From the NCBI GenBank assembly GCA_973895155.1, contig OZ316892.1:28234307-28298306 (forward strand): a stretch of DNA of 64,000 nucleotides, written 5' to 3'. The DNA is from Marsupella aquatica (taxonomy: Eukaryota > Plantae > Marchantiophyta). Positions 2,739-49,424 of this stretch are shown piece by piece (position 1 is the first letter of the stretch; every line of letters starts with the position of its first letter). The notes below the pieces were generated by a model. That model was not told the origin of the DNA. It made no database searches and saw only the letters and a program-made list of their open reading frames with translations. Position numbers and translations under genes: made by a program.

Positions 2739-4118
2739 TTACTGAGCCTGTACTAAAGCAAGTCCTTCCCGGGCAAGCTTGTATGCCTCATCAAACGCAG
2801 CTTCAGCAGAGGTTGGAACATCAGGCACAACTCTTACTCCGTCCCAATCGAACTTCGTGATCGGATTGATAGGCCTCTTGCCCGGAAAGATAACCAGAAA
2901 ACTTTCGTCTAAATCGAATGCTCTCATAGGCTGTGCTTCAGTAGTCGTGGGCTCGCCAATGATCTTCGCTCGCTGGAGACTCTGTAGATTGTAAGCGAGC
3001 TCTTCGGCGCCACATACCGTCTGCTCACTCGTGAGCACGTAAATTGGCTTCTTGCCCCCATACCTTTTTCCTTTCACGGAAGGCTGTGTCCAATACTCTT
3101 CCACGGATCCTCCATCTTCAGGAGAGACTAAATCCTTCAGGTGGACGGGCTCCTCATCGAAGAAGTAGCTTGCTATCAGCGACATGGTCTTCGGAGCGCT
3201 TAAGTGGTGCTCACGCAGATCGACCAGGAGTGCTTCCGCATCTGCAATTTCGGTCATTCTGCTCGCGATGGCATCACGAACCTCCTCGTCGTCTGAAGGT
3301 ATGAACTCGCGGATCGTGAGGCAGGCGACGTTCTCGTCAAGGTGTTGGGTCTCCTCAAAGCCGTAATTTCTTTGTCGAAACATCGCAAGTGCGTTCTCTT
3401 TTTCCATTTCAGCCCTAAAATTTGGGTCAAAGCGAAGCATAAAATGAAGGTCGTCGCTTACTTCTTGTAGGTCTTTCGTCACCGCCTCAGCAAAATCAGG
3501 AGCCAGAGAGATCCTGTCATAGTCTCCATGAGCAGCATTCCTTTTGAGTGCCTCGATCATCCGTTGCCCGACGTCAGCATAGATAAAATGATCCTGAAGC
3601 TCCCGCACGATCCCCTCGATGAGCAAGCCGCGTCGATAAGGATCGAGATAGCGAGCAGCTATGGCTTTAGCTCTTTCAACTGGAGATAGGAACTCATCTG
3701 GCGTCGGTATCGCGCGAATCTGGAATGCGTCAACCCGGTTAGGATCAGCGTTGTCCAATTCTATCACAAATAAAGCGAATTGGGGGGAGTTCCGCTCTTG
3801 CAGAACAGCCGTGAGCCGATTCGCTTGGGAATCAGAGCTGATGCCTTTCAGATGGAAACCTCCAGTCTGTCTCCTAAATGCCATCTCATCATTGACGTTT
3901 GCTATATCATTAGAAGGGCCTTGGGATGAGAAGTTATGTTTCTCGTGATGCGCCACAATCTCAGTCCGACTTCCAATGTTGAATACTTCAAGCCACTCAG
4001 CGAAGACCCTGCCCACCGGAGTATCTGGAATCGATACTTGATCCATCTCCTTCGCAGAGATAAGCATGAAGTACGCCGTGAGACTGAAGGCCAGAACGGC
4101 GATGAAAATGCGTGCCAT
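2739..4118 (-). CDS. Intronless, probably secreted S41-family (IRBP-like/C-terminal processing) peptidase homolog of bacterial type
   Basis: Signal-peptide-like MARIFIAVLAFSLTAYFMLISA from the ATG at 4118; motifs DLQEVSDDLHF, LLVDLRE and KPIYVLTSEQTVCGAEELAYNLQSLQRAKIIGEPT; C-terminal WDGVRVVPDV. Confidence 0.85.
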   Translation of the reverse strand: MARIFIAVLAFSLTAYFMLISAKEMDQVSIPDTPVGRVFAEWLEVFNIGSRTEIVAHHEKHNFSSQGPSNDIANVNDEMAFRRQTGGFHLKGISSDSQANRLTAVLQERNSPQFALFVIELDNADPNRVDAFQIRAIPTPDEFLSPVERAKAIAARYLDPYRRGLLIEGIVRELQDHFIYADVGQRMIEALKRNAAHGDYDRISLAPDFAEAVTKDLQEVSDDLHFMLRFDPNFRAEMEKENALAMFRQRNYGFEETQHLDENVACLTIREFIPSDDEEVRDAIASRMTEIADAEALLVDLREHHLSAPKTMSLIASYFFDEEPVHLKDLVSPEDGGSVEEYWTQPSVKGKRYGGKKPIYVLTSEQTVCGAEELAYNLQSLQRAKIIGEPTTTEAQPMRAFDLDESFLVIFPGKRPINPITKFDWDGVRVVPDVPTSAEAAFDEAYKLAREGLALVQAQ

Positions 4119-5289
4119 TTCCAAGTGAAAAACTCGTACCAGACTGTGAGGCGATGTGACGATGTTGAGTGTTAAAATCTCGTGTTGAAGAACGGCCAAC
4201 AGGGACGCTGTCGAGTCGCATAAGCCAAGCTCACAAGATCAGCATGGAATTCGCTGGCTATTTTGTGCTTCACCTGATCGATGTCGTGGAGGAGAAGGCT
4301 AAGGTACGTGACGAAGAAGAGGAAATTGTGAGAAGCGTCATCGAAGTGAGGACTAAATTGTAGATATGTCGGGGTTTCAATGTCGGATCTAAGTTGTGAA
4401 AATGTAAACCCCAAATTCGTCCAGCTTCCTGTTGGTACTGTGAGCTCTAGAATCCGGATTATGAAGAGCCCTTCGCTGCAAAAGCTTTAAGTAAGCTGAA
4501 TTGGGTAGATGCCCAATCAGCATGAAAATAATTTTCATCCTTATCCCACGGTTGAAATTTGGTCAATGTGATTCATAACATAAAGTACGCTGGTTCGAGT
4601 CATCATTTGTGGGAAAGAAAGTAGTGATTGAGATTAAACAGAGACCAATGGAATTGTTGCCCTTTCAGAAAGTAGTGACTTGCACGTAAAGTCTGAACAA
4701 TAAAAAAAACTAAGTGTGGGATTGTTCAGCCTTGAACAAGCAACCTCAGGACTTTTGCCGATGCCAATGGCACGGCCGGGCATACCTCATGGAACACGAG
4801 TCAAGTACGTTGACAAATTCAGCAGCCCAGTGGCAATCCGTTCAGGAGAATCGACACCAGGTCTCATATGAAGTCTTTCGGTAAAACTGATCGCCTCCTC
4901 GGCCACCATAGTTATCCCAATGCTAGACTCAAGCTGAAGTGGCCATTAATCCTGGGTGGTAACAGTGCCTTACGCTGATCATACAGTTCTTGTCTTGGGT
5001 CACGAAATTCAAAGGACGATGCAAAGCTGCTTTCCATCATCAAGCTGAATCATACACACTCATCAAGCTGAATCATATACAGTATCAATATCAAATGAAG
5101 GGCAGGGCAGGGATGAAATGGGCAGCTCAGTTCAGGGCGAGCTTCCAAGCTCTTTCGCTTTCAGTGCCTTGGGTCAGAACAGGATGAGCAGAACCATTAT
5201 TTATAATAGAAGTAGAGTGGGAATCGGATCAGATCTCGTTTTCTGAATTCGATCGTCAGCTTACGCTAAGGAATCTGAGGCCTCTGCAC

Positions 5290-7460
5290 ACACGACGGCA
5301 ATCATGGACCAGCTGCACGCATGCACTTAATTCTTGACAGACACTATAACAATCATCTAGGGTCAGCTGCTCACTTGCTTTTTCTTTACTGCAGCTGCAC
5401 AAATGCACGTAAATCCTGTGTGTGAGTAGAAGAGGTTAATTTGGTGTCCTGAAAAGTTGAGCAGGTAACCTCTTTCCGGGCACGAGTTACTTAAGCTAAT
5501 GCAAGGTAAGGCTGGGGTTATAGGTTGTAACCTGCTCCCAGAATATTCAAAGAAGCTTCCCGGCTACTGCCGGTCAGTTTCTTTTCATATTCCGATCGCA
5601 GGGTTATAGCCTTGTAACCCTGCGCCCAGACCTGCATTACCCTATACTTAATTCTTTGACTGTTTTAGCACTTTTTCAGATGTGTTTTTGTCCATAAGCT
5701 CCACAGATGCACCTAATTTTTTACAGATCACACCACAACATGATGGATCAGGTGCTCCCCCGGTTTGAATTTGCCCATCAAACTGGCCAATTTTCCCAGT
5801 AAACACGTCAACCCGTCAACCCAGTTGCCTGGTCTCTTGGAGTTGGGGTCGGTCTGGCTATGAGGGTCGGTCTGGGCTGGCCTGGGCCGGGTGTTTTGGT
5901 GGTTCGGTAGGGGTTTGGGATGGGTTTGGGAGGCCGGGGAGGGGTTTGGGAGGCCGGGTCTGGGCTGAGTTCGAGAGGAGTTCGGGAGGCCAGGGAGGAA
6001 TTCGGGAGGAGTTTGGGAGGGGTTCGGGAAGCTGAGTCCAGCCCGGGTTTGGGTGGGGTCCGGGCGGGTCGGGAGTCCGGGGGAGTCCAGGGGAATATTG
6101 GGAATATATGTCAAACTGGCCGTTTTGGGGTCGTCATTTGACGGTTTTACGTGCTCGGCAAGCCATCAACTTGCCCGTCAGGTTAAACCTAGGGTGCTCC
6201 GCTGCACTATGCCACTACAGTTATGCACTTAATTTTTACTGCTAAATTACTATTCAGACTCACTTTTCAGATGTATTTTTGCACAGAGGCTCCACGCATG
6301 CACTTAATTTTTGAGAGGCACTACAACAACCCTGGATCAGCTGCACTTAATTTTTGAGAGACATTACAACGACCATGGATCAGCTGCACACTATTTTTGA
6401 GTGCTACTTTTCAGAGGCACTTTTCAGAGGAGCATTTTAGATGTATTTTTGCACAGAGGCACTACGACGACCATGGATCAGCTGCACTTAATTTTTGAGA
6501 GACAACACAACAACCATGGATCCGCTGCACTTCATATTTTAGTTCTACTTTTCAGAGGCACTTTTCAGAGGCGCATTTTAGATGTATTTTTGCACAGAGG
6601 ATCCACTCACGCACTTAATTTTTGAGAGGCACTACAACGACCATGGATCAGCTGCACTTAAATTTTTAGAGACAACTCAACAACCATGAATCAGCTGCCC
6701 TTCATATTTTAGTTCTACTTTTCAGAGGCACTTTTCAGGGGCATTTTAAATATATTTCTGCACAGAGGCTCCACGCACGCACTTAATTTTTTAGAGGCAC
6801 TACAATGACCATGGATCAACTGCACTTAATTTTTTAGAGACAACTCAACAACCATGAATCAGCTGCCCTTCATATTTTAGTTCTACTTTTCAGAGGCACT
6901 TTTCAGGGGCGCATTTTAAATATATTTTTGCACAGAGGCTCCACGCACGCACTTAATTTTTTAGAGGCACTACAACGACCATGGATCAACTGCACTTAAT
7001 TTTTGAGAGACAACACAACAACCATGGATCAGCTGCACTGTATTTTAGAGTGCTACTTTTCAGAGGCACTTTTCAGAGGCGCATTTTAGATGTATTTTTG
7101 CACAGAGGCTCCTTGCGCGCACTTAATTTTAGAGCCACTACAACAACCATGGATCAGCTGCACTTAATTTTTGAGTGCTACTTTTCAGAGGCACTTTTCA
7201 GAGGAGCATTTTAGACGCATGCACTTAATTTTTGACAGACACCACAACAACCAAGGATCAGCTGCTCAATTACTTTCAGGCTCATGTATTATTTGTTTAC
7301 TGAAGCTGCACAAATGCACTCACTATATGCACTTGATTTTATACTGCTGCATTACTTTTCAGACGCACAATTCAGATGTAGTTTTGTACAGAAGCTCCAC
7401 GCTTGCACTTAATTTTCGACAGACAAGACAGCAATCAAGCACGATATGCATTTAATTTCT
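5290..7460. repeat. Complex minisatellite/satellite, core 6270-7270, higher-order unit ~170 bp
   Basis: Recurrent CCATGGATCAGCTGCACTTAATTTTTGAGA and CTTTTCAGAGGCACTTTTCAGAGG blocks. Confidence 0.9.
5759..6192. mobile_element. Putative non-autonomous insertion (hAT-like geometry) inside the satellite
   Basis: GC-rich block bounded by the 8-bp direct repeat GGTGCTCC (5751-5758 and 6193-6200); weak terminal inverted similarity; repeated CCCRTCAA-like subterminal motifs. Confidence 0.45.
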
Positions 7461-8909: not shown

Positions 8910-10608
8910 CTGATGAGAAGCTTTTGATAATGATTTTTGTTATATAGATAGATTCTAAATACTTAAAGCATATCAATGAGGTCTGGCAGGCAAGGACGCA
9001 GGTCCAGGCTAGGTCCTGATGGACTCTCATTTTTCTCTAAGTCCAGCTCTTGTATCATCTAGGAAATTAAGAAGGTGGGGTGTGTGAACAACTTCTTCCA
9101 TGGATATATCCCCCAATATATGAGATAACCCTGCAGAAAAAGTTCACTCCAAAGTTGCCATGGAATGCTTTTTGCCCTATGGGCCCCTCTGAGAGTAAGC
9201 GCCCTATCTACATGTGTACACCACCAAAATCATATCATTACTAAAAACTTAAATAACTATTACAAACCTAAAATTATATACCTTGTTATATATAATGCAA
9301 ATGTAAAAAATAAAGCCTGGATAGACCAAGGGGTTTTGCTGTAAAAAACCCCTGGATTTTCAAGCTGGGATGGATTGACTCAGAACATAAAATCTACTCA
9401 GATAGCACTTTTACAGTTTGGACTCAAATGTGACCTGCAAACAGGCTCCTGACCATTTGCAGCTGGTTTCCAATAGTTTACGCGGTTGTAAGTCGCAGCC
9501 AACACACAAACTACTTAGGTCATTCTTCCCAAGGGGGAGAGTCCTTTCCCAAAGTGGTATGTCCATTGTTCCTGCCTAAGTACTGAGGGAGTTCTTCACA
9601 AAGTGAAGAATCAGTTGGCAGTTAGTTTATAATATTTTCTCATCTTTGCAGGAATTGGAAATATTGCAAATGAAAGTTTGGTAAATTTTCAGGCAATAGA
9701 TGAGGCATAAGAGAACCTGCTGGAAACTTTGAGTTTATTAAACAAAGATTCAAAAGATGTCCAAATAAATGCACAAGTCTGCCAAAACCAACATTTCACA
9801 GTTGATCAAGACACCTGGAGAAGTACATGGGGTGTTTCTCTCAAACATGAAGCGTCCTTTCAAGATAGCTGGACACTGTAAATATTGGGTGTAAAGCGCG
9901 GTGTAAAGTGAAGGAGCATGTGTCACAGTCCATGAGGATGGGCAAAACAAACCCCTCGGTCCATCCGGGCTTAACTTTCGATCTGCAAAGATCACTTAAT
10001 AATATAATCCCTAGTTATCACTATATTCATTAAAACTGAAATTATAAAGGATATAGGGAAATTTGGCGATTTAAAAACATAGTTTTAGGCATGAATATTG
10101 TAAATTTGGAAGATGAAAAATGAAAATTCAAGCATCATTAAATGTAAATTTGGGGACAAAAAAATGAAATTTTGGGAAAGTAAAATATTAAATTGGATGA
10201 TATTAAAAAACATTTGGGTGATAAAAGTGTTCATTTGGTTGGAAAATAGATAGAATCTAGTAATAACATATAAGCTTGGATAGCATCTATATTCAAAACA
10301 TTTAGCTTGAGTAAGATATCTAACTAAGCACCAATACAATGGAATGACTATAGTGTCTAGACAAAGTTAACTAGGATGATATCCAACCTACTAGAAGGAA
10401 TGAAATGGCATCAATTTCTAGAATTAAAATATACTAAGACAAATAAAATAATAATTATAAGAAAGTCCATTCAATAGCTTTGAGAGATCATAGAGTATTA
10501 ATTTGATTGTCTTGTTCTCTCACTTTAGACCAACGCATGGAAATCAACTCGACCCTCTTAATCACAAGTCATTTGAGTGGAGACTTGTAACCTACGAGTT
10601 CTATCAAT

Positions 10609-13600
10609 CTACTCATCAATTATACCTTCCATGTAAATTTTCAGAGTTTTCAAAACATTCTTAGGAATTGTCAAACCTCTATCCATAATATTTTGTTCTT
10701 TAGCACTTGACTTAAACCCATACATTGCAGAATTTGCAAACTGCCAACTTTGAGTAACATTGTCAAACCCAGGATCCAGGATCCAAGTCTTAGTGGTTTG
10801 AAAGCAACGTTCATATCGAACATCATCCTTTGCATCATGCTTACCATGTTTAGGCCTCCACCATTGTACTTGGAACATAGGAGCATTCCTAAGAGGAATG
10901 CTCTCAACAAACGTTGAAGAAGACCCTTCAATATGTTGCAAATCTGTTGAGGGAACCTCATGGTTTGGATCCACACCACCCAAAGCTCGAACCAACCAGA
11001 AACGCCCTTTGCCATTTTCCTGTTCCCATTCATCCTCTGGACGTAAAAATACAAAGTGACCTTCTTGAATATCTTGTAGAGGAATCCAACGTGCAGGTTC
11101 TCGCTCTTGTCGTGCACCAACAAAGGGTGCAGCTTGATCTTCCATCTCTTCCATGTACTCATTTTGAAAGTCCATCATCTCTGGATTTTGAGAAGGTTCA
11201 CTTGACGGCTGAGATGTCCCCAAAATCATCTTGTAACCTATGCCATGGTTAGTCTTTGGCCAAAAATCAGTTGTCAATGGCAAATATCTTTCCCCCTCCC
11301 CTTCTATTGTAAGTTCCTCGGACAGTGCTTGCACAAGATTCTCCCAATATTTGACCAAAGGAAATCTCTCTTTATATGCTGCAGAGGTCTCATCCTTACA
11401 ACTTTTCTTCAAGAAATCAATATAGCGATTAAGGAATGGGATGATTTCTCCAGCCTTCTTTTGTACATCCCCAGATATAGGTTTTGCAAATGGTTGGCCT
11501 TCCGGTAAAATGAGCGCATTTGTGATGGGATCAGTTCTCCAAATGGACCTCCCCATTGCCGGAAGCCAAGGTTGCTTGACATGTGCTTTATATTGATACA
11601 CTGGCACATTATCCCTCATGGAGAAAAGAAATGCCACTGGTTTTGAGTGACCTTCTATCTCTTTCACCTGGAAAGTTTTCAAATACTCCTTGTAAGATGC
11701 AATCTCTTGAATCAATCGTGGTACAGGATGAATGCTTTCACACTCCCAAACCTCAGCCATCAACCCCAAGAGGGTAACAACCTCTTTGTATCTGACCTGT
11801 TTGGATACTTGAGAAAATAATGCATCCACGTCTTCATGGGTGTGGCCAACCATGAGGAATGACATTTGCACAGTTTCAAACACCCCCTGCTAACAAGCTC
11901 AGTGCAAAATGCCATCACATATTGATTTTTGTTATCTTTCCCTGAATTGTCCATCTGCAACGTTAGGTGCCTTGGTAAGGGCTTGAAAGAGCCCCTAGTA
12001 GTCTCAGGATCATCCTTAGAACCAACATCCACTGTGCTTGATTTTTTAGTCTCCTGACCATCTTCAATGCCTTGAAATTGAACAATTGAAACATTTTTGG
12101 GTTCCAAGTAACCGGCCAGAAATGCTTCAAAGTCTAGAAGGGACTGAAATATTGGCCTAGTTGCATTCCAATTCAATCCCTCAAGAAGGTCTCCAGTTTT
12201 GTCTCCTGTGTAATCTTCCAAATCTCGGAGGCATTTGGCCAAAGATGTCACGGTAAAGTCTGCATCTCCAGGCCAAAGTCCAGTCAAACTGAAATGTGCA
12301 TACACTCCAGGATCTCTTCCATGGGTTAACATCCCAGTAAGAGCAATAGGCAAAGGCTGACCACTACCAGAGAGGGATTTTGGAGTGGGGACCAACCTGG
12401 GGATCCAAGTCTTGGCTTGATCCATCTTATCGTGAATAATGCAAAGATAGTTTTGAGGATCCTTCTTTGCAAGAACCCTATGAGCATAGTAAACATATCT
12501 TCTTGACATTTGTTCACAAAGATGTCGCGCTCTTTTCTCTTCAATCTCTGCACGCTCTTTTTTTCTCTTCTCCCGCATCAATTGATCTTTGAACTCAATG
12601 CAAAATGTGCACTTGGCAAATGCACTTCCCTTGTGAAAGTCAAAATTATCAAATGAGTTTTTCCAGATGTTGTACATAGTAACTTCAGTAACCTTAGCAA
12701 ACCCATCTAATTCCATCTTGGTAAACACCTCTTGGAAAATCTCCTTCTTAGTAAAACAAGATGGGAGCCGATATTCAATAGTGTCAGTGCCGTTGGACCC
12801 ACCATAGGGAAGATGTGGCATTGGTTCCCCATTTTGGATTAAAATGGACTCCAACAAGGCGCGAGCGTGCAAAGTGCTTGATCGTGTCTTCCGTTGTCCC
12901 TGATTTCCATGGAAACCAATTGTGCAACCAGCTTCGTATTGATTTTTGTAGTCATAGTACTTTGTTGTACTGAACCCATGCATTTTAATAAATGCATCTT
13001 TACAAACCACACATCCCTTTAGAACAAAAAATCCCTTTCTCTTGACTTGCTCCTCTCTACACCCAAAGAGACTAAAGATGTGACTTGTTTTGTTGTCACT
13101 TGACATTCCATGGTATTCCCTCCTCATTGCCTCTAAGTCCTCCCTGGGCATGTTCAAGCAACACTTCAGCTTGCAACAACCTTCTCTTTGGATGGAATCA
13201 ATGGACTCCTCGTTAATTTTCAAAAGTGTCCTCGACTCCAAATGCCTTTTCTTCCTCTCCTCAAGATCAACTTTTGTCCTCCTAATGAAATTGTATGGTC
13301 TTTTTGTAGGTTTACCATCACCATCCGAATCCGGATCGCCCTTAGTTCGACCCGACTCCATCCACTTCTCTGAAACTTCCTCAAGGATATCCCCAAGAAA
13401 CCTTTGAGGCGAAATCAATAGAAGGGATTTGATTTCCCACCTCACCAAGCCAGGGGTACCAACACGGATATTTGGAAATAATCCGGGTTCATTGATATTC
13501 ACAACAGCAACACCAACATGATCTGCACCAAGAAGTTCATCGTCAACGGCACCTGTTTCAAATGGGACCGTGATAACACCTGTTGCAACCTTTCGACAAC

Positions 13601-14323
13601 GAGAAGCGTCATACAAATCAACCTCCTCCGCCATCCAGTTGGAACGTAGTGTAAAATCTTTTAATGGAAGATCATTGAAAATATTTGAACTACCAAACAC
13701 GCCAAAATCTCGAAGAGTGCCCTTTCTAGAAACATGCGCAACATCCCAGATAACCCAGGTATGCAAGGCCTCTGCTATTGTATCAGCTCCAGGGTGCGAG
13801 TATGGCAATTTTTGATTTCCCTTAACAATATCAGATATTCTTATACTGATGCGACCAACCCCGAGTGTTTCAGTATGACAAATATCCATCGGATTTGTCT
13901 TGAAAACAACTCCATTTGCAACCAACTGATCAAAATGAACATCTGAACTTCATCTCCTTCCTTGAACACGTCCTCTTCAACCCTTGCATCAATTTTGGAT
14001 TTATCATTTCCAGCATCTCCAGCCAAAGAGAAATCATCGACATTGATTCTTCGGCGCTGAGTTGATGACCTCAAGTATGCCAATGCACAATCCCAAATCA
14101 CGCAGGAGTCAATTGCCTCAGCCAATGTAGAAAATTTGGGCAAAGGAAATGGAAGTTGACGCGATCCATCAAAACACTTTTCGATCAATACCCCAATTCG
14201 ATTGTCCCCTAGACAAATGTTCTGTATAGTATCCTGGGGGTCAACCTTTTGAACTATCCCAATTGCCGTTTCAAATCCATCGATCACCAATGACACTTCA
14301 TCCCCTTGTGTAAAATTGATCAT
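10609..14323 (-). pseudogene. DDD-type transposase (Sola-like/DUF7869-type), ~1,240 aa after repairing two 1-nt frameshifts
   Basis: Joins ORFs 13841-14323, 11760-13925 and 10609-11883. Motifs VCKDAFIKMHG, CTFC, IHDKMDQ, LQMDNSGKDNKN and FLMVGHTHEDVDALFS; three N-terminal VAxG...LP.P...A....V.W-type repeats. Confidence 0.8.
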
Positions 14324-14450
14324 GATAGCAGACTATCTGTATTCAAATAAAGTTAGAAATTGTTAAGTTCCCCATGTTACAATCATGTTTCAAAATCTGG
14401 ACTCTCCTCCAAAAAATATTGTAAAATCACTCAAAACCCTAAATACATTC

Positions 14451-14900
14451 AAGTCGGGTCGGAATTATTTCGACCCTCCTCCAACATTATGTCTTGAAAT
14501 GATTGAATTGACTAAACATTTACAAGTCGGGTCGGAATTATTTCGACCCTCCTCCAACAATATGTCTTGAAATGATTGAATTGACTAAACATTTACAAGT
14601 TGGGTCGGAATTATTTTGACCCTCCTCCAACAATATGTCTTAAAATGATTGAATTGACTAAACATTTACAAGTCGGGTCGGAATTATTTTGACCCTCCTC
14701 CAACAATATGTCTTAAAATGATTTAATTGACTAAACATTGATAAGTTGGGTCGGAATTATTTCGACCCTACTCCAACTATTAAGTTGAAATTATGTCAAA
14801 ACTATTTGTGAAACTATCTTGCTTATGCTTTTATATACCAGTTTAAAATGCTAGTTAAGATGACATAGTCAGGTCGGCACGAAATAATTCTGACCCACTT
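14451..14900. repeat. 73-bp tandem array carrying the palindrome GGGTCGGAA-TTA-TTTCGACCC, upstream of the transposase
   Basis: Units start at 14451, 14524, 14597, 14670 and 14743 (partial); a degenerate inverted copy lies at ~14872-14900. Confidence 0.92.
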
Positions 14901-16136
14901 CTAGAAACTATGTTAGTAATCACATAAAGGGGTACAGTAAGTTCTACACATGCTAGACTGTGGATAAAGGTCTAGAATGAGTAAAATATATGATCTAGAA
15001 CCTAATGTGTAAATCTTAATCTAGGTTTGGCTTAAAGGTATTGAATTAGATGTAGTTGAGCTAGTACTTCTAAGATAAATAAATAAAATCACTAACCTGC
15101 TCCGCAATATATCTCTGTCCACCCTTGTACAAGCTAAATGGGTACCTTGGATGCCAGCATTGTAACTCTTAGCACCATAGTGCTCACCAGTGCCCTTACT
15201 AAACCTTGCATTCAACCATGCGGACCTAAACAAGGCACTCGGACAGAGGAGAGTCAGTGATCGTACCAATCACTGCCTAAATGACAATGAACCAAAAAAT
15301 AGATTGTGGGAGGTCTATACTCAGTTTGAGAGGCAAAAAGCCCACATATTACCCAGCACACGAGTGGACACCAACAGATCGGGCACGGGTGGATGAGGCA
15401 CGCACCCAGCACACAAGTAGACATCGGATAGGGTGTCAGCCAATCACTCACGAGTGATAGGTGAGTTGCGAGCACACACCGCTGACAGCTCGGAAGTTTA
15501 AAATTGGTAGGTGAGTCGCGAGTGGTCGTGAGTGGTCACACCATCGGTGACTCACGATCACATGCACCGAGGAGGGTCTCCATCATTGGCGCGCATTGAT
15601 GCCTCCGTACCCTCTCGGATCCTTGCCTCCTCGGACTCCTCGCTCGCAGGGGGTATAGGAAGGCAGGCCTTGCGCTTGAGGCCTCATTTCCTTGCCTCCC
15701 TCTTGCCTCCTCTCTCGTCTCCTCACTCCTTGCCTCCCTCTTGCCTCGCTCTAGGGCTTTTGTTTTTGCCTCGCTCTTGGGATTTGTTTTCCGCCTCGCT
15801 CTAAGGCTTTTATTTCCGCCTTGCTCCCTTCCCTTTTGGGTCGCTCCCTCGATCATTGTTTGCCTGTTAGTGCCCTCTTGCAGCCTGTGGCATTCTCCAT
15901 TGCTGCCACGTGTCATCTTAAATCTCACTCGCCCCTTACAATGTCTACTTCCTCCAGTTCTGAAGCTTCCACCACCTCCGCTAGTTCTCAAGAGTCATTG
16001 AACTTCAATTATAACTCTCTGTATGAATATGACCCTGAAGACCCGGATGTCCAAAAATTGGTTAACAATGCGTTGGAGGCGTCAAAGAAAGCCCAGTTAA
16101 CTTTTCCACGTAAGGCACCACCAGCTTCAACTTCTT

Positions 16137-16803
16137 GCCTCGCCCTTAGGGCGAGACAACTTTACTTTAATTTGGATTTCAAACTTCTTATTAGGAAAAT
16201 TTCTATATTCCTTTGCAGTCGCCTCGCCCCAAGGTCGAGGCGACGTCTACTTTATTCTAGATTTCTTGTTGCTCCGAAGGCGTATTGGACCTTGTATCTT
16301 ACATTAATAAAGGATCTTTAGCTATATTCTATTTTTTGCCTCGCTCTTGGGGCGAGGCGATGTCGTCTGCATTCCTCAAATGTAGTCTGCATTCCCAGAA
16401 GTTGCCTCGCCCTTGGGGCGAGGTGATGTTATCTGCATTCCTAAATGTTGTCTGCATTCCCAGAAGTTGCCTCGCCCTTGGGGCGAGGCGATGTCCTCTA
16501 CATTCCTAAATGTTGTTGGCTTTCCCAGAAGTTGCCTCGCCCTTGGGGCGAGGCGATGTCCTCTGCATTCCTAAATGTTGTCTGCTTTCCAGAAGTTGCC
16601 TCGCCCTTGGGGCGAGGCGATGTTGTCTGCATTCCTAAATGTTTTTTGCTTTCCTAGAAGTTGCCTCGCCCTTGGGGCGAGGCGATGTCGTCTGCATTCC
16701 TAAATAATGTTTGATTTCTTGGATGAGGTGGCAGGGCTAATTGCACTAGGAGCAAAGAAGATTTTGCAATCTTCTATTTGTCGCCTCGCCCCAAGGGCGA
16801 GGC
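16137..16803. repeat. Intron-1 array of the palindrome GCCTCGCCC-NNN-GGGCGAGGC (9 copies; core period ~65 bp)
   Basis: Copies at 16137, 16221, 16338, 16404, 16469, 16534, 16598, 16663 and 16783. Confidence 0.95.
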
Positions 16804-18473
16804 ACCTTGAAAGTTTTCCACATGTCAATGTTAAAAATATGATGCTGACCATTTTGTTTTCAATGTTTCTTACCAGGAAAAAATCTTGAGAAGCTGGAGT
16901 TAAATATTATGGACGAGGATATCAAGGACTTTGTTTTCCCTGACCAAGATACTCCAGGATTTAGATGGGCACTAGAAGTTGGGGTGTCGGCGGAAGGCAG
17001 TCTCTTGATTTGTTTCAAGGGCCTCACAAGTCAATTGAATGACCGCAAGACAATTGTTACTCTAGGTCCAGTCGTCCTTGTGAACACGGACAACAACCGC
17101 AATGCAACGATTATTGTTGAGTCCAATGAGAAATCTCAGTGGATGAGACTTCTAGTGCCAATAAAACTCTACTCGACTTTACTGAATGTTGAGTGGATGG
17201 CTCGATTGGAGATAAGCGTAGCTGATATGGGATTCTTCTTAGATGGAGTAACAATTGATCAGATGTTTGAGAAGACGCGTTCTCAAATAAGTGGAGTTGA
17301 CCTAGTGTTTGGATTTCTCTACGTAAAGAAGCACATGCATGACAATGCGGACAGTGTGGACCCTCCGTCTACTTGGATAGTTCAAAGGATGATTGATAAG
17401 GCACATTTTTCATACGAGCAAGCAATCGACAAGAGTTTCATTTTTTGTCTAGAGTTTCAAGAGGCCGCGTGCCGGACGTGGATTTCAGAGATGAAGAAAA
17501 AAGAAGCAAAGCATAAGGCAAAGGAGAGAAAGAAGACAGTGGAAAGAAGTGCGCAATCAAAGACAGAGAAGAAACGAAAGCTTCAAGAGCCGGTTGTTCA
17601 ACAAGAGAAACAATCTGGGAGTTCACGCCGTAAGAAGATGGCTAAAAAAAATGAAGATGATGAGGGCCCCCAAAAAAAGCAGACAAAGAAGGCAAAGGTT
17701 GCGAAATCAAAACCAATGTCAGGGTCGACTTCAAACTTTGTCTTGCATCCAGAGGATGATATGTGTCCGACAGAAGGACCCAAAGAAGATGATGTGCTCA
17801 AAGGCCAAGAGGTTTTGCGTAATATTGAGCAGTATTATACTTTTGGCATCCGCGAAGTTTTTGATATTCCTGTAAAAAGTATTAATCCGCCATCGGCCGT
17901 TTTTGTATATCGAATGTTCAATCTTTCGCATGCAATGGAGATATCAAAGTCTATGATGAAAAACCCTGGACAGGAACCACAAGTTGCTGATTTGATTCCG
18001 TATCGCGAGAGCACTAAACAGTTGCTTCATTATGACAACACACCTCAGGATAGGAAAGAGTTTTTGATTGGTGTGAAGAAGCATGAGATCCAATTCCTTG
18101 CCATCAGTGGCCAGCATTCTGCAAGAGCTGCCCAATGGATCCAAGGGTGGGCCGAGACTAACGCCAAGCTGACAGATCTTGCCAACAAACTAAAGTATAG
18201 GAAAGCAAGGATCCTATCTGACCTCACTCCGAAGACAATTTTGGTTGAGCATTCAAGTTTATCGAATGTTGTCAATGATACTATGCAATTTAAGTCTTGT
18301 TTTTTAGAGACTATTGTTCATGCACGAAGGCAGTTTGAGGAGTGCGGGAAACCGCCGCGTCCAGGGATTGGGACCAATCAAAATACAGACAGGGAAAATT
18401 ATCAGGTACATGTTGGAGCAACGCAAACTATTCTTGATCCGCTTTGTTTAAAGATTGTCAATGGTAGAGGTTT

Positions 18474-18653
18474 GCCTCGCCCCAAGGGCGAGGCTGCCTT
18501 TTCTTGTTTTCCTTGGTTAGAAGATTAAAGCAAATGTTTGCCTCGCCCTTAGGGCGAGGCAACCTAGACTAGTCTCTCTAAGAATAATTCCCTAGTTCCG
18601 TTTCAGTCAATTGCGGTTAGATGTAGAGGTTCGCCACGCCCTTGGGGCGAGGC
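18474..18653. repeat. Intron-2 copies of the same GCCTCGCCC palindrome (3 copies)
   Basis: Copies at 18474, 18540 and 18633. Confidence 0.9.
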
Positions 18654-21600
18654 GGCTTAGCCTGTTTCAAACATAGGTATAAATTTTCTAACATATGCAT
18701 TGTACCCTGAAACTAATGTCAAGTCCATTGGATATGCAGGATTGGTTTGCCCTGGCAAAGGTTACAATGGGGAAGTCAAGCCTAAAGAGCATTTATTGGT
18801 TACTTTTTGCCGAAGATGAGCTCTTTGAATTATGACGGAACGTGTGTGCAAAATGGTTGAGTGGGAAGCTCCAAGACGGGGCTGGTGGGTATGGAGGGCC
18901 AAGACCCCCAAAATTGATCACTCCCGGTACCTTTCGATGCTTTGAAGGAGAGATTAGTAGCAAACAGATAATTGAGATCTTGAAGGATGTTGAAGAGGAG
19001 CGTGTCTTGCTGAAGAAGGATATCACCAACAAATCAGAGCTTGTCGCAATGGGAGACTTGGCCCTTACAATCAAGATAATGTCCAAATTGAGAACAGTCA
19101 TTATTGGCTATTTCGTGGAAAAGTATCGTGAGAAGTTTCCTGTTGGCACATCTTGGGAGTCTCTGGTGATATTGTTGCCTTCCTTGAAATCTGAGCTTGA
19201 GATGACAAACTTGAGGAGAGCAGCGGGTGAGGTTTACCTCAACAATTCATTGAAGAAGAATGTGGTCAATGAGAGTTTCCCACAAAGTCTGATGGTCAGA
19301 CTAGATGGGTTGTATTGTAAAGAATTTGGTGGGATTGGTCGTTCTCGCACAGAGCCTTTCTTGACATTTTTTAGTGAGAATTTGATGAAGATGACCGTGC
19401 CGGAAATGCTACAAGAGCCTTCGCCTTTGTGTCCTCTTGCCATTGTTGACTTCAGTAGGCTCCGACAACATGTTTGGACCGATGCTGAAATTATTGCATT
19501 ACTGCAATACATTGTGGATCTTCCAAGAAATCCAACAATTGTTGTTGTCATGACTGTGCATCCGGGGCCACTTGCTGCAAACATTTTGAGTGCCCTTAGG
19601 AAATTGCAACATGAAAAGGGAATGGACATCCACGTCGACTACGGGAGCTATCGACGGAGTGATACACCAGTTCCAGAGGGCTTACTTTTCAGTTGTGGTA
19701 TGGAGGAGATCATCTTTGCAGGAATCACCACTGAGGAGAAATTTGATTGGAAGCAAGTGTTCAGGCCTGGATTTAATTGCCAATTTTCTTACAATTCGGC
19801 GATCGACCCTGATTTCCAAGTGGAAGACAAGACGGAGAAGCGAGATAAGAATAAGAGTAAGACAAGTAAGGAGACAGAGACTGAGTCAACTTCGGCATTT
19901 CACATTGGAGATTTCTTACGAAAGGCTCCCATGTTTGAGATGGTGGGAAGTAGAGGTGGCTTTGTGAATATTCACGCTAAGCCAAAATGTATGCTGCAGA
20001 GTATTATTGAATTTTTTTCGGCTGAAGGGGAGACTATACTTGACTTTTTCTCGGGAGGACAGGTTATGAAGGTGTCATTGTTGTGTTTCAGAGAATGCTT
20101 TGCGTATTCAGACACTAAGGATGAATATGATTTCACTTAGGCATATGGAAGGGTTCTCTACGAGAAAGTTCCTTCCATAATGAGTGACCGGATGGGCGGT
20201 TCCAAATTTGGTAGAGCCCGCAATGGGGTTTTCGCGCATGTTGGTGCCAAAGAAGGCGTAGACCAGGGCGAAGATGATATTGAGGAAGGAGAATTGGGTC
20301 ACGACACAGACGACAGGGTCACCCGAAATTTGGATGAACGTGGAACACAAGTGGTAGGTATTCCCTACTTTGGTGTGGGGTTGGCTGATGTTGTGGGTCG
20401 ACCTGAGGGCGACCCACCAAGAAATCCCTTTGCCGGTGTAGAGAATTGGATGCACCAATCGGACCCAGATCTTACATCGTCCACATCGGACGCACATTGG
20501 AAGGCAACCGTAGATGGTCTAGGCAATATTGACGCAGTAGAATTGGGAGAAATGTCAGACATTGCGCTTGCAAAGGAGGATGATCGTCAAGTACCTGAGA
20601 CCGCTGCAAATGAAGAAGAGAAGGCAGGTGCTTCAAATCCTCCCCTGTCTCCTCTATATTGCTCATCAGAGACTAAATTGGTTTTTACAAGTGCTTCTAC
20701 AGGAAGCCCCGTAGTATTATCATTTTCACAAAATTCTGGATCCGAGATCGGCAGGACTGGATATATGAAAACAGTCCGTCCTGCAACTCATTTTATATGG
20801 AGAAATGGACCAAAGGTTGGAATGATAGAATCACTAGACGATGCTCCAAAGATAATGGCAAAATCAGATTACAAAAAACTGAACTTGAGACTGAGCCCAG
20901 TTTTTGCACCCCCATCCTTTGAAGAGCAACTTCCCAGTGGTATCAATTCCGAGATACAGAGTGTTCTAGGTGATCAAACAATAGATGAATTTGGGCATTT
21001 TAGCATTGGAAATTATTAGCCCATTCTTTGGTTCTTGGTATTTTAATGACAATCTAAGCTTTATCTTTGTAATAATATACTTTTTTACAGACCAAAGTTC
21101 CGTCGTAGAATCTCCTTCCTCAAAGGATTTTGTTGGCATTCCCTCGGAAAGCGTTGCTGTGGAGGAAGGGTTTGACCCAGGTATACTTTGGATCTAAAAA
21201 ATGGCAATTGAATGTAATTAATGTTTTTCTAGGAGGGTCGCCCCAGGGTTGTTCCTCTCTACTTCAAATGCTATAACAAAGTTTGTTTGATTTCAAATTT
21301 TGAGAGTTTTCCTCCGTAGTAATTGTTTAAACTTTGAGTCGCATTGACTAAGGGCTTATGTTAATGTTTCCAGAATTCACTCCAATACTACACTCTGCGA
21401 TCCGGCGAAAGCTCTTGGTTCTTGACCTTAACAAGATTTGTTGGGATTGCATTAAGACCAGAAGCTCAGGACCATGGCGAAATCAGACAAGTTTACGTGG
21501 TGTGCACTGGGGGAGACGTGGAGGGTTTAATTTCATGTATGTGGAGCGCCCATACCTCCACGAATTTCTATATGCAGCTTTCATGGTTTTTGACGTCGCA

Positions 21601-23502
21601 ATTTGGACCTGTGCAAGGAGGCCAAAAACAATGGACTTAATGGAGTTGATTTTCACTAAGGAGGAGCAACAGAAGTTCAAGTTTGTCTTTACTCAAGAAG
21701 ATACCTTTGATAGTTGCATCCAAAGGCCAGATATAACAGATGGGAAGGCCAATTTACTTCTGAAGAATTTGCAAACCATTTGGGACCGTTTTCCAGAAAA
21801 ATATGATGCTTCTAATATAGTTCTTATTGATGATTCTCCATTGAAGGCATTTTTGAATTATGACGTGAATGGATTGTGTCCAAATCCATTTACTCACACA
21901 GCTTCAAATGACACTTTTTTGCCCGAGATATTATGGCCGTATCTTTGCAAATTGAGAAAGGCTTACTGCGTTCAACATTATATCACTGTCAACAATCCAA
22001 AGTGGTCTGTTTTCAATTTATTAACAAGCAAGGGGATCATGCTGCCATCTATGCTCTTTTGGAACAGAAGTGGGGAGATTGTCGTTGTATCCATAGGGAG
22101 TTTGGAACCATCTTGGATGTGACTCCTGAAGAGATTCCTTGGGACGGAAAGAACGAGGTGCAGCATTACCCACCACTGGAGACGTGGACCACGGATGAGA
22201 TCAAAGAAACTGCAAACGTAATAGTTGGAGACAACTATTCTGGTCCTCATACACAAAATAGAAGGCATTTTATTTGGAAAGTTCTCAGAACTAGGGATCT
22301 CACCAATAAGTTTAAGAACCACCATGCGAGAGATACTTGCAACCGTGACATCCGCTATGATAAATCAGGAAGCAGACTTTCTTGTTCAAATGAGTTTTGT
22401 CTTGATCATTAGGAGATAGGGTTGCTCTAGTGCCTACCCTGAATTGTACATTCATATTATGTCTTGAAAGGATATGTTTTGAACATGTAGGATAAAGTAA
22501 ATAATTAGGATATATGCTTAGTGTGAGGCTCTCTCACTGGACTGGACAATTTAATAATTATATAGTGGGTCAATCTCATTTTGACCCTTGATTTATGACC
22601 ATCTATATTTTTTAATTTATAGATGGTCTGAGTGGTATTGGCCTCTGATTTTTGGACTAAATTAAATTACTCTAATTTTTAAATTAATTAGAATATATGA
22701 TTTAAGTTATTATTAAACATTTGGGTGAAAAAAAACAAAATTTTGGGCATTCAAAAGTGTATATTTGGGCTGAAAAAAATTAGCTTTTGGGAATGCTTTA
22801 ATAGAAATTTGGCCTGAACAAAAATAACTTTAGGGTTCATCTTATGGACTTTTAAAAGTACAGTTTTAATGAATATAGTGATAGTTTAGAAAAAATGACT
22901 TAGTATAATGATTAACCTAGAACCAAACAAAGTAAGCTTGCTTATTCATGTTCCTTCCTTTGATTACATACGGTGCGCAAGGGTTGTTCACATCCTATTA
23001 TTAGCAGGTAAGAGTTGGCAAAAAGCAATTCAAAGACTTCAGGATTGTTCCCTTTCTATGGGGTTTCACAGATTTCCCCATAGTTTAAAAAAACAATGAG
23101 GCTCACAATGCAAACAAGGTTTGAACCAGGGACATCTCTTGCGCGCCCCACTCTCACACTCTACTGCCAGCCCATGGCAAGCTGGATGAGAATACCGGTC
23201 GAGATATTGGTATTTTCCATGTATTTAGCTTCATTTTGCAGGCATCAAACCTGTATCAACCGGCTGATGGCAACCACCACTTGCACAACAGACAACATTT
23301 AATGCCATTTGCGTGACTTACAGAAGGAAATTTTATTCCACCTTGAAACAGATGCTAGTAAGCTACATCCATTGGCATTTGATCTTGGATCTCGTGTGCA
23401 CGTTATTGTAAGTTGCACACATGGAAATAAACCCAAGTTTTCTTTTATCCAGACACATTTATCTGCCATTAGGTCTTCCTAAATTCAGGAGGACTGTCAG
23501 CT

Positions 23503-23865
23503 TGTTAGGATTTACTCTTAGGTCTAGAGTTGCGACTGTACCATAGTTAAGGCTAACCTTAGTCGCAGACTTGGTTAGGTTAGTCATGCTGTGCACACTC
23601 TATAACCAAGCGGTGTTTGCTTGGAAAGTGGGAACTCAGGCTCATTGTTACGGAGCTAGTTATTGTTACGGAGCTAGTTGAGAGATAGAGAGAACTTGCG
23701 CTGTGGATGCTGGGTATGGCTGGTCGGCCTAGAGTGCAGTAAAGCTCATGTGTGTTCCCGTGGACGTAGCCTCATGTGGAGGTGAACCATGTATCTCCCT
23801 GTGTCGACTCTTGTGCGTTGGATGGTTCATGGGCTTGTCGTTGCGATTGTCATCTATGCTCAACA
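23503..23865 (+). mobile_element. Solo LTR (TG...CA), same family as 41547-41889
   Basis: TGTTAGG...TATGCTCAACA ends; colinear with the second copy; degenerate 5-bp flanks CAGCT/TAACT. Confidence 0.8.
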
Positions 23866-24539: not shown

Positions 24540-27000
24540 ATGTTTTCTGAACAAACCAGAATAAAACTGAATACACCTCTTGACATGATATATGGTAGTG
24601 AGACACGATCTGAACGGTATAGATCGGGTTGGAGTTGTACGTACAATATCTTTAAACCACTTAAAGTAACATCTCCTTGATTTTGACAAATGTGACAATG
24701 GGGTCTAGGGCCTGCTAGGTTTTTGAACAAACGAGAATAAAACTGAGTACACCTATTGACATGATAGATAGACGTGATAAACAACCTGAACTAAGGGTGT
24801 ATAAGGGCCTTGACCTCAAAGGTATATCAGGGGTTTAGAGCTGTACATACAGTCCTTAAACCTTATCATGTTACATCTCCTTGATTTTTGAAATGTGACA
24901 ATGAGGTTTGGGGCGGACTCAGTTTTTTGAACAAATGAGAATAAAATTGAGTACCCTTGGTACGGCGTCTCAAAGCTTCAATCAAATCTGATGGACCTGA
25001 ACTTAGTAGTTAAGGTTACTGACAGAAAAGTTATGGACTACGAACTTTGTAGTCCTTAACTTTTTACAATAAAGATTGGTCATATGTCATCATTATGTAA
25101 GTCACTGTAGAGGTTAGTGAGAAAAAAATCAAAAAGCTTTTACATAACCGTGTGAAAAGTTACGGCCATTTGTTTATGACCAAAAGTTTTCATTGCAACT
25201 TTGAAGCTTTGAGATGCCCTATCAGCATGATACAAGACAAAAACTCAAGCATGTTCCAGGATGAACATGCTATATCGGGTACACTACCTGAAGGGTATGA
25301 TATAAGAGGTTTGTTAAAGGTATATAATGGGTTTGAGTTGTATGTACTACAGCATATAAAGTAACATCTCCTTTATTTTGACAAATGTGAGGTTTGGGGC
25401 TGCCAGGTGTTTTGAACGAAAGCGAATAAAAATGTAGACATGATACTAGCTAGCCTGATTACCCCATTCCTTTAACATACATAGAGATGAGAAGAGGAGC
25501 AAGAAACCTTTTCAAAAAATTAATCCCCCTTATTTCCTGTTTGTCTTTTCCCCATCCCTGTCTGCACCCTCACTTTCGATCAGTTATGCCCTCACTTAGA
25601 TTTCCAGTCCACAGGCTTCTCTCTAGACAGTAGACTCACGCTCAATTTCAGTTATGATCTCACTCAGAGTTACCGTCTGGTGTCTTCTCTCTGGACATTA
25701 GGCCCACCCTCATTTTCAGTTATGCCCTCACTTTCAGTTATGCTCTAGAGTTACTCTAGACTTTCAGTTAGTTATGCTCTAGAGTTATTCTAGACTTTCA
25801 GTTATGCCCTAGAGGCTTCACTCTAGACAGTACACCCAAGAAGTACCTTTGGATTAGGCTTTATTGGTTAGACATGGTCAGGATAAAAGACCTACAGGGT
25901 ACATGAGGGGTTTGACCTCAAAGATAGATAAGGCGTTTGAGCTGTATATACAGTCTTTAAACCATATAAAGTAACGTCTCCTTAATTTTGACAAATGTGA
26001 CAAAGAGGTTTGGGCCTGCCAGGTTTTTTGAACAAACGAGAAGATAACTTTATTGTACCTAGCCTGAGGGGTATGAGGGGTTTGAGTTGTATATACGGTC
26101 TTTAAACTGTATAAATAAGATCTCCTTGACTCAACAAATGTGACATGCAAAGAGATTTGGGGTCTGCCAGATTTTTTGAGCAAACCAGAATAAAACTATA
26201 TTGTACCCGAAGGGTATAATATGTGGGGTTTGACTAGTATATACACTCTTTAAACCAACTAAAGTAAGATCTCCTTGATTTTGACAAATGTGACTATGAG
26301 GCTTGGGGCCAGCCACGTTTTTGGACCAAACGAGAATAAAACCTTATCATACCTGAAGGGTATTATGTGAGGGTTTGAGTTGTACACACAGTGTTTATAC
26401 CATACAAAGTAAGATCTCCTTGATTTTAACAAATGTCATAAAGAAGATAGGGGCCCGCCAAATTTTTTGAACAAACGAGAATAAAACTCTTTTATCCTTG
26501 AAGGGTATAATACGAGGGGTCTGAGTTGTATATACAGACTATAAACCATATAAAGTAACATCTCCTTGATTTCTGACAAAGTGACAGAGTATAACAAACG
26601 AGAATAAAAGTATATTATACCCTTGAATATCTATAATATGAGGGGTTTGAGCTGTATGTACAGTCTTTAAACCATATAGAGTAACATCTCCTCGATTCTG
26701 ACAAAGTGACAGAGAGGGACAAAACGAGAATAACACTATATCATACCCTTTGGGTACATATAATATGAGCGGTTTGAGCTGTATATACAGTCTTTAAACC
26801 ATATAAAGTAACATCTCCTTGATTCTGACAAACTGACAAAGAGGAACAAACGAGACTGAAACTATATTATTACCCTGTGGGTACAATTATACAATATGAT
26901 GGGTTTGAGCTGTATGACTGTATATACAATCCTTAAAACCAAATGAAGTAGCATATCCTTGATTTTGAGAAATGTGACAAAGGGTTTTTGGGGCCTGGCG
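24540..27000. repeat. Degenerate ~120-bp tandem satellite, interrupted by insertions
   Basis: Recurrent TTTGAGCTGTATATACAGTCTTTAAACCATATAAAGTAACATCTCCTTGATTTTGACAAATGTGAC...AAACGAGAATAAAAC. Confidence 0.9.
24963..25219. mobile_element. MITE-like insert with TA flanks (Tc1/mariner-type geometry)
   Basis: GGCGTCTCAAAGCTTCAA / TTGAAGCTTTGAGATGCC inverted ends (1 mismatch); TA at 24961-24962 and 25220-25221. Confidence 0.6.
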
Positions 27001-48523: not shown

Positions 48524-48589
48524 CCTTCGATTCCCAGTTCTCCACGGATCGATATACTAGACGCCTGAGCACTGTGCACCACTACTGAG

Positions 48590-49155
48590 CTGAGATGATC
48601 GATCGACTCAGCTATTCTGTGACCGCAAAGCTTGTAGGAGGATGGTCCATCGACTGTTTGTCCTTTCGACTGTCTTCTGGACTCAGAGACTTCAATGCAC
48701 TGAAACAAACTAAAATATAATCATTCGCAGTGAGTGGAACAACTTGACGCAATGATCGATCGATCTAGAATCGATTGATTCAGCTATTCTTTAAGCGCAA
48801 AGCTTGTAGGAGGATAGTCCATCGGCTGTATTCTGGACTCACAGACTTCAACTGACTGAAATAAACTAAAATCTAATCATACGCAGTGAGTGGAACATCT
48901 TGACGCGACAATCAATCGATCGAGCATCGATTGATTCAGCTATTCTTTGACCGCAATCGATTGTATTCTGGACTCACAGCCTTCAACCCACTGAAAAAAT
49001 AAAAAATCTAATCATCCACACCGAGTGGAACAGCGTAACGTGATGATCGATCGATCTAGCATCGATTGATTCAGCTATTCTTTGACCGCAAAAGCTTGTA
49101 GGAGTGTGGTCGATCGACTCTCAGTCCTCTCGATTGTGTTCTGGACGATCGATCT
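48590..49155. repeat. GATC-rich tandem repeat (about 4 units, ~130-160 bp) at the 5' side of the cyclin-like gene
   Basis: GATCGATCGA...GATTCAGCTATTCT...CTGGACTCA(C/G)AG...GAGTGGAACA recurs. Confidence 0.85.
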
Positions 49156-49424
49156 CTGAGATGGGAACAATAATGATTCAAGAGCGACACAGTCTCCCGA
49201 GATAACCATGCTCGCACCGAGAGACGTTTCTTTCAGCGGGCGAATCTAGCTACTGCGGACCCAAATTGGGAGCTGATAGTAAAATTAGAAATTCATATTG
49301 AAGCCGGATTCGAATTCTAGCGATTCAAGTCGTTGAATCTAGCAATTCGAGTCGTTTCGATGATGAATTTCGACGTTCAAGCCGACCTCCATTTCAAAAT
49401 TCACTTGCCTCAACCGGCAACGCC

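Follow-up and report, generated by a model that had tools for sequence, protein, structure and literature searches.

Does a liverwort DNA transposon carry, next to its transposase, a protein that recognizes the element itself? The question was raised by a 64-kb stretch of the Marsupella aquatica genome (assembly GCA_973895155.1, contig OZ316892.1, positions 28,234,307 to 28,298,306; the whole stretch is called the window here), in which an element of 12.9 kb, spanning 10017-22882 and bounded by terminal inverted repeats (TIRs), holds a DUF7869 (Sola-like) transposase gene and, on the opposite strand, a passenger gene with ParB-like, methylase-like and NIF/FCP1-like parts. The element is genuine: it is one damaged member of a cut-and-paste DNA transposon family that looks multicopy and is likely of the Sola1 kind. 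Judging by analogy, and with confidence a little above even, the passenger is probably a self-recognition factor that would bind the palindromes in the element's introns, and not a classical methylase.

Ends and genes of the element

The TIRs were complementary at 22 of 22 bases (10017-10038 versus 22861-22882) and at 91% when the match was extended to 33 nt; about 0.001 comparable pairs would be expected by chance in 64 kb. The direct repeat AGTT stood on both sides (10013-10016 and 22883-22886) as a 4-bp target site duplication (TSD), for this single insertion only. Four ends in related loci (in L037, L044 and L058) read AACAC, AACAC-like or AACAT, with divergence starting immediately beyond them. 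At both ends of L044 the outermost two bases were inverted, so these bases belong to the TIR. The features of the element are as follows, by window position and strand.

10013-10016, no strand: left copy of the TSD AGTT, read from the sequence (chance ~0.006)
10017-10038, plus: left TIR, 22 bp, terminus ATCAC (relatives' termini AACAC/AACAT)
10104-10232, plus: subterminal ATTTGGG-type short repeats, 4 copies
10609-14323, minus: DUF7869 (Sola-like) transposase, ~1240 amino acids (aa), by Pfam and motifs; frameshifts near 13940 and 11890
12614, 12434, 11957 and 11847, minus: transposase motifs CxxC, HDKMD, QMDN and GHTHEDVD, respectively
14340-15098, minus: intron in the transposase 5' untranslated region (UTR), predicted from GT and AG sites in the sequence, with the ATG at 14323
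14456-14768, no strand: array B, 5 copies of GGGTCGGAA-TTA-TTTYGACCC with a 73-bp period, in the predicted 5'-UTR intron
15941-16109, plus: passenger exon 1, Ser-rich start, in-phase splice
16137-16803, no strand: array A in passenger intron 1, 9 copies of GCCTCGCCC-NNN-GGGCGAGGC with a 65-bp core period
16877-18405, plus: passenger exon 2, with a beta-rich N-terminal domain, a Lys-rich linker and a ParB/Srx-like domain
~17800-18400, plus: the ParB/Srx-like domain, by fold, with ISGQHS at 18100
18474-18653, no strand: array A in passenger intron 2, 3 copies
18740-20993, plus: passenger exon 3, with a helical linker, a beta-class amino-methyltransferase-like domain and an acidic tail
18833 and 20138, plus: passenger stops in the window copy; other copies read through
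19436 and 20033, plus: exon 3 motif IV strand LAIVDFSR and motif I TILDFFSGG, respectively
21091-21180, plus: predicted small exon (90 nt), in phase between the methylase and NIF exons
21374-22412, plus: NIF/FCP1-like (haloacid dehalogenase-type, HAD) phosphatase exon, by Pfam, motif I DLN; frameshift near 22033
22567-22587, no strand: single B-like palindrome in the 3' region
22719-22827, plus: subterminal ATTTGG repeats, 4 copies, oriented as at the left end
22861-22882, minus: right TIR, 22 bp
22883-22886, no strand: right copy of AGTT

The transposase gave two DUF7869 matches in Pfam (E 2.5e-22 and 7.8e-15), and its coding sequence runs through three frames by way of the two frameshifts. 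The motifs HDKMD, QxDN and GHxHxDxD, which we take to be the Sola DDD triad, were found in the window, in most long open reading frames (ORFs) of related loci and in P0114, a full-length intact relative of 1300 aa that keeps them. The closest named relatives were from the liverwort Calypogeia fissa, at 52% identity, and viral contigs yielded no such transposase. The Sola label, which rests on these motifs, the 4-bp duplication and a precedent in Ectocarpus described below, is likely correct, and it is nearly certain that the transposase moves the element by cut-and-paste.

Passenger exons 1-3 are joined by in-phase splicing with GT-AG sites. The 90-nt exon and the NIF exon continue in phase, but in the window copy the donor required behind the methylase exon is non-canonical; the NIF exons are likely, on this arrangement, part of the same gene. 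For the exon-2 model (predicted local distance difference test, pLDDT, 84.7), the ten best PDB matches in Foldseek were to Noc, PadC or ParB, with a best E of 2.1e-3, and phage ParB matched at E 8.5e-5; the ParB-like domain was a fold match only, with no match in Pfam or NCBIfam. The exon-3 model had a mean pLDDT of 58, higher in the core, and matched beta-class amino-methylases (best E 4.5e-5). It has the permuted Rossmann fold, motif IV lying ahead of motif I; a profile search matched M.RsrI, and the N6_N4_Mtase family of Pfam matched at E 0.0018, below the Pfam cut-off. The NIF exon matched Pfam above the cut-off (E 1.8e-16) and UBLCP1 at E 6e-9. The beta-rich N-terminal domain of exon 2 (16909-17550) was confidently modelled, returned no match in the fold search and is, on the model, a candidate specificity domain.

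An earlier note on this DNA, made from the sequence alone, had described perfect 22-bp TIRs flanked by AGTT, a Sola-like transposase, a passenger with ParB, methyltransferase and phosphatase parts, and a palindrome array for each gene. All of this was confirmed: the ends by complementarity and the flanking direct repeat, the transposase by its DUF7869 match and DDD-type motifs, the passenger parts by fold (ParB/Srx-like, beta-class amino-methyltransferase) and by Pfam (the NIF or phosphatase-like part, with its DxDxT motif reading DLN), and the arrays by their positions, B in the transposase intron and A in the passenger introns. The statement that the element encloses exactly two genes is likely correct. 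The divergent minus-strand transposase and plus-strand passenger are present, and the splice from methylase to NIF exons, with its non-canonical donor, is a putative one. The central claim, that passenger and transposase travel together in a Sola-like TIR transposon that is self-contained and multicopy, was upheld by read-contig depth, related loci and a Riccia gene model, as follows.

Copies and relatives

Part of the stretch was present in eight public sequencing runs from six studies under five organism labels, and four of the eight (two organisms, two studies) were analysed. In run X1, six long contigs over the transposase and passenger had depths of 421-517 and differed by less than 1%, and two flank contigs had depths of 12.6 and 19.4. 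Depth over both genes was ~20-40 times the flank depth in the cleanest run, and depth increased at both element ends in all four. Depth gives no exact copy number and no contig spanned the whole element; the data point to tens of near-identical copies carrying both genes. Nearly all depth in the four runs read otherwise at both passenger stops, and the NIF frameshift was read otherwise by all depth in two runs and by part of it in the other two; this covers 40 of the 717 rows of differences between runs and window, the frameshift near 11890 not being among the 40. Because the high-depth contigs were near-identical and mostly read through both stops, the family looks young and multicopy and the window copy, with two passenger stops and three frameshifts, is damaged.

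One contig of run X3 joined 22882 to 18470, at a passenger-intron palindrome, which suggests a copy inserted in another copy beside its array. An X3 contig that began at 22882 and continued into the right flank is a candidate for an empty site with one AGTT. An inverted paralog of the left flank (9312-9979 versus 50629-51282, 70%) was considered as an empty site and rejected, as the similarity stops 37 bp before the element. A short duplication at 9900-9934 was present in all four runs and absent from the window.

The linkage of passenger and transposase was followed in metagenome stretches with a related transposase, of which 255 were found, 80 fetched and 56 non-redundant, 24 of these having at least 6 kb upstream. 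A stop-tolerant pass recovered passenger relics upstream of the transposase in seven of the 56, on the opposite strand in six of the seven, with none in 170 kb downstream and none in reversed decoys. NIF relics occurred in six loci, and L039 and L042, in the same divergent layout as the window element, held a ParB-end (E 0.012) and a collinear linker (E 2e-8). Pfam recognized NIF in 5 of 15 relic ORFs at E ≤0.1, one of them above the cut-off. A GQH motif in L039 was discarded as a ParB relic for its wrong order. In L073/L074, tandem decayed NIF-like domains lay upstream of a DUF7869 transposase (3150-6300), inverted relative to L033.

Among proteins, the ParB-like passenger family comprised 95 clusters at E ≤0.001, with named relatives in Calypogeia, Riccia sorocarpa and the lycophyte Diphasiastrum. 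Of 30 proteins looked up, eight were gene models of Riccia sorocarpa from dispersed positions, and a Riccia gene model fused a ParB-like piece with a DUF7869 piece. ParB-like and methylase-like parts occurred in a single gene model in P0074 and P0100. A pattern search found no passenger in metagenome contigs or prokaryote genomes, nor was the TIR sequence found in prokaryote genomes. In 57 passenger sequences DUF3723 gave no match, and DndB matched weakly in two (best E 0.04).

Altered motifs, palindromes and the probable role of the passenger

The catalytic motif PP[YF] lines the flipped-base pocket of amino-methylases. In the passenger, the strand assigned to motif IV from the topology has D-F-S-R at its end, and [DNS]PP[YFW] was absent from the window protein and from nine of nine relatives (two incomplete), seven of which kept motif I. 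The GxxR arginine motif of the ParB CTPase was likewise lacking in the ParB-like domains: 41 of 47 near-complete domains read G-x-H-S/T and none G-x-H-R, the other six comprising five without a match and one spurious match. No helix-turn-helix (HTH) for parS binding was identified in the passenger. In the NIF part, the DxDxT motif reads DLN in the damaged window copy, the second Asp being gone. In each of the three modules, then, the fold looks conserved and the active site altered. Such losses have parallels, as phage ParB partners of DNA-modifying enzymes can function without the nucleoside triphosphate (NTP) residues (PMC13229309, in the part available), and methylases borne by DIRS1 elements were described as likely inactive (PMC4738411, likewise in part).

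The palindromes of both arrays are 21 bp with 9-bp arms, are situated in predicted introns near the two promoters and have a common geometry, G..TCG-N9-CGA..C, which matched 15 times in the 12.9-kb element versus once in the remaining 51 kb. Two hybrid copies lay within coding sequence, and the other tandem arrays of the window contained no such palindromes. Different palindromes recurred at least three times in 7 of the 80 related loci, in six of them clustered upstream of the transposase (L003, L037, L044, L061, L069 and L072) as family-specific arrays, none with a detectable passenger. Three related DUF7869 elements had long TIRs and perfect palindrome arrays of their own, at 1782-8904 in L044, 4722-5420 in L069 and 50-693 in L061. 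Because L044 is complete, free of cargo and also has an array, such arrays characterize the clade of these transposases and are no proof of a ParB-site pair.

If the passenger is a self-recognition factor, the system may work as follows. The transposase would cut at the ATCAC ends, leaving the 4-bp duplication. The passenger would dimerize via its ParB-like domain and occupy the TCG-N9-CGA sites, which have two-fold symmetry and follow closely on both promoters. Once bound, it could keep the divergent gene pair transcribed against host 5-methylcytosine (5mC) silencing, as VANC does for VANDAL elements. The S-adenosylmethionine (SAM)-binding methylase fold may be used to bind or read DNA, and contact with RNA polymerase II or chromatin may be made by the NIF module.

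Several results weigh against this account of the element and its passenger. AGTT agrees with the outer A and T, and departs from the W at position 2, of AWWT/AWDT, the target preference of Sola1 in the available part of the source, the comparison being of one site with an insect-derived preference. The transposase N-terminus contains repeated Transposase_23-like (TnpA-like) domains, with matches from weak to clear. L044, which measures 7.1 kb from TIR to TIR, has its palindrome array and no detectable passenger, and it lacks a TSD, unless this lack reflects a merged assembly. NIF was absent from 123 of 123 fetched proteins, none being a methylase-NIF fusion, and a search for proteins of 1163-3320 aa found none joining the two, which is weak evidence. 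The placement of motif IV depends on the topology of the low-confidence exon-3 model. A first pass over the 80 related loci found a passenger in none, and the stop-tolerant pass found none in 49 of 56; these 49 include 18 of the 24 loci whose upstream sequence reaches 6 kb or more. The seven positive loci are low in GC content, decayed and similar in DNA, and as they are not independent they count as one or two families; the match of L073 to the NIF profile holds by construction. The methylase core was not found in the relic-bearing loci, and the NIF-bearing loci had no palindrome arrays.

The frequent absence of the passenger from related transposase loci would be expected if it were a host gene or a separate element caught by chance in one copy. 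This explanation is largely refuted, and we give it hardly any credence: depth was even across both genes, relatives are dispersed and multicopy in Riccia and Calypogeia, and the same divergent layout recurs in L039/L042 and, in the available description, in Ectocarpus. The superfamily could also be read otherwise, as a CACTA/EnSpm element with captured genes, ending in CACTA...TAGTG with a 2-bp AT duplication. CACTA does occur at 10019 and TAGTG at 22876-22880, with AT on both sides, and the TnpA-like Transposase_23 domains and subterminal repeats fit such an element. The catalytic domain is nevertheless DUF7869, with no Pfam match in the element to Transposase_21, the catalytic domain (TnpD) of CACTA/EnSpm, and AGTT would be left unexplained. 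A CACT terminus with a 2-3-bp TSD was not what the relatives indicated, as their conserved terminus, AACAC or AACAT, lies two bases further out and these bases, inverted at both L044 ends, are part of the TIR. A CACTA origin is very improbable.

For the arrays, it is possible, at well under even confidence, that they are bound by the TnpA-like repeats of the transposase N-terminus for autoregulation or activation, the passenger acting otherwise, for example in targeting or non-specific spreading on DNA. This is consistent with the Transposase_23 matches, with the six loci that have arrays and no detected passenger, and with a report, available in part, that transposases can activate their own elements (10.64898/2026.08.24.746577). 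Among those loci, however, L044 alone is intact from one end to the other, the rest being cut upstream. Of the 17 array copies in the window, 12 lie in introns of the passenger, at a long distance from the element ends on which transposases act. It is unlikely, though proposed for the Ectocarpus element Sola1-1_Ec32 (PMC12477816, seen in part), that the passenger is an active non-canonical N4-cytosine/N6-adenine (N4C/N6A) methylase marking the element's own palindromes, each of which has CG sites. Its beta-class fold, the conservation across liverwort orders of the motif X/I region (KP...D[FIL]FSGG) and the motif IV Asp, and the existence in liverworts of a bacterial-type N4-methylcytosine (4mC) writer, as far as the source shows, speak for activity. 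PP[YF] was missing in 10 of 10 sequences, whereas MpDN4MT1 has TSPPY in the available source, and the observed-to-expected (o/e) CpG ratio of the element, 0.56, was no higher than that of its flanks (0.61 and 0.66), giving no sign of protection. The confidences placed in self-recognition, transposase binding and active methylation overlap in part. The epigenetic or self-recognition module suggested by the earlier note was weakened as an active epigenetic writer, both by the missing PP[YF] in the window copy and nine of nine relatives and by the array in cargo-free L044. The family-wide loss of catalytic motifs suggests that the published self-methylation proposal may be wrong in detail.

Precedents, surroundings and significance

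The earlier note did not recognize the architecture as a described one, and this novelty was not sustained. Sola1-1_Ec32 of the brown alga Ectocarpus (PMC12477816, here and below known from part of the paper) is a Sola-1 element with an opposite-strand gene for ParB and an N4/N6-methyltransferase, AACCG ends, a 4-bp TSD biased to end in A and a best match to a moss Sola1. It largely amounts to an already described family with the same cargo, but its host is an alga, and the available text mentions neither a NIF domain, nor palindrome arrays, nor motif loss. Both are large Sola-type elements with a 4-bp TSD, AAC-start ends (ATC in the window) and an opposite-strand accessory gene with ParB-like and N4/N6-methyltransferase domains, a likeness of description. 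Sola1-1_Ec32 is the longer element, at 21.5 kb versus 12.9 kb here; its TIRs are imperfect and span 282 bp (22 bp here), and its accessory protein has 1104 aa, versus up to ~1700 aa here. The land-plant host, the NIF/FCP1-like module, the loss of PP[YF] and the ParB arginine in all relatives examined, and two arrays of one geometry distinguish the present element. The literature search returned the Ectocarpus description only and no land-plant case; Repbase, Bao 2009, Yuan and Wessler 2011, Iyer 2011 and Petroll 2025 may hold closer matches.

In mosses, Sola1 of Physcomitrella was reportedly treated by Bao et al. in 2009; its transposase is of the DDD type, and we know of no passenger for it. 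The present element resembles it in having a seed-free plant host, a DDD-type transposase and a 4-bp TSD. Physcomitrella Sola1 is named in a table of PMC9033089, a source available in part.

Other systems resemble parts of this one. As cited in PMC12477816, through which alone they are known here, transposons of green and red algae (Iyer 2011, Petroll 2025) encode accessory proteins that share the ParB-methylase domain pair and the transposon location, the red algal carriers being giant EnSpm elements, and the same paper briefly proposes, for algae, self-binding and marking by such proteins. VANC of VANDAL elements is an anti-silencing protein with tandem target repeats (PMC5735166, in part), and our working analogy is with its status as a transposon-borne accessory protein and with tandem family-specific repeats in non-coding parts; the VANDAL carrier is Mutator-like and its protein unrelated, whereas here the repeats are palindromic and binding is putative. 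Bacterial ParB/Noc with parS and the beta-class methylases M.RsrI, M.MboIIa and M.PvuII share the folds and the palindromic site arrays, but the passenger lacks the ParB motif arginine and PP[YF], and no HTH was identified. Marchantia DN4MT1 keeps TSPPY, unlike the passenger, and ParB goes unmentioned in the available account of it, as in that of a 2026 preprint on adenine methylases in retrotransposons.

Around the element, an intronless 499-aa peptidase S41 (IRBP-like) ORF at 2739-4238 (minus strand; CpG o/e 1.0) lies between two tandem arrays and looks transferred or captured, and a 441-aa ORF, likewise intronless, at 47231-48556 (minus strand) matches cyclin N-like sequence at its C-terminus. 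Non-palindromic tandem arrays with periods of 126-170 bp, likely from other mobile elements, were found at 1370-2626, 6299-7460, 24600-26990, 48600-49100 and 49400-50424. Dispersed repeats occur on both flanks (9312-9979/50629-51282 and 23503-23865/41547-41889), with very high depth at 23236-23700. Exons encode a P450 (29405-30889), an O-fucosyltransferase (33504-34127) and a SET-domain protein (58573-59085).

This family is a land-plant case, young and multicopy, in which candidate target sites are visible, and it has liverwort relatives near the Marchantia genetic system; it makes the algal proposal directly testable. If true, a protein that recognizes a 21-bp palindrome and keeps chromatin open would be a tool candidate. 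More tentatively, seed-free plants may harbor a recently active Sola lineage with bacterial-derived ParB/parS-like self-recognition, in which a ParB-pseudomethylase-C-terminal domain (CTD)-phosphatase would load on family-specific intronic palindromes and shield the element from silencing; this would be a second anti-silencing mechanism, with no relation to VANC, and its outline would recur in algal, possibly also fungal, transposons of other superfamilies.

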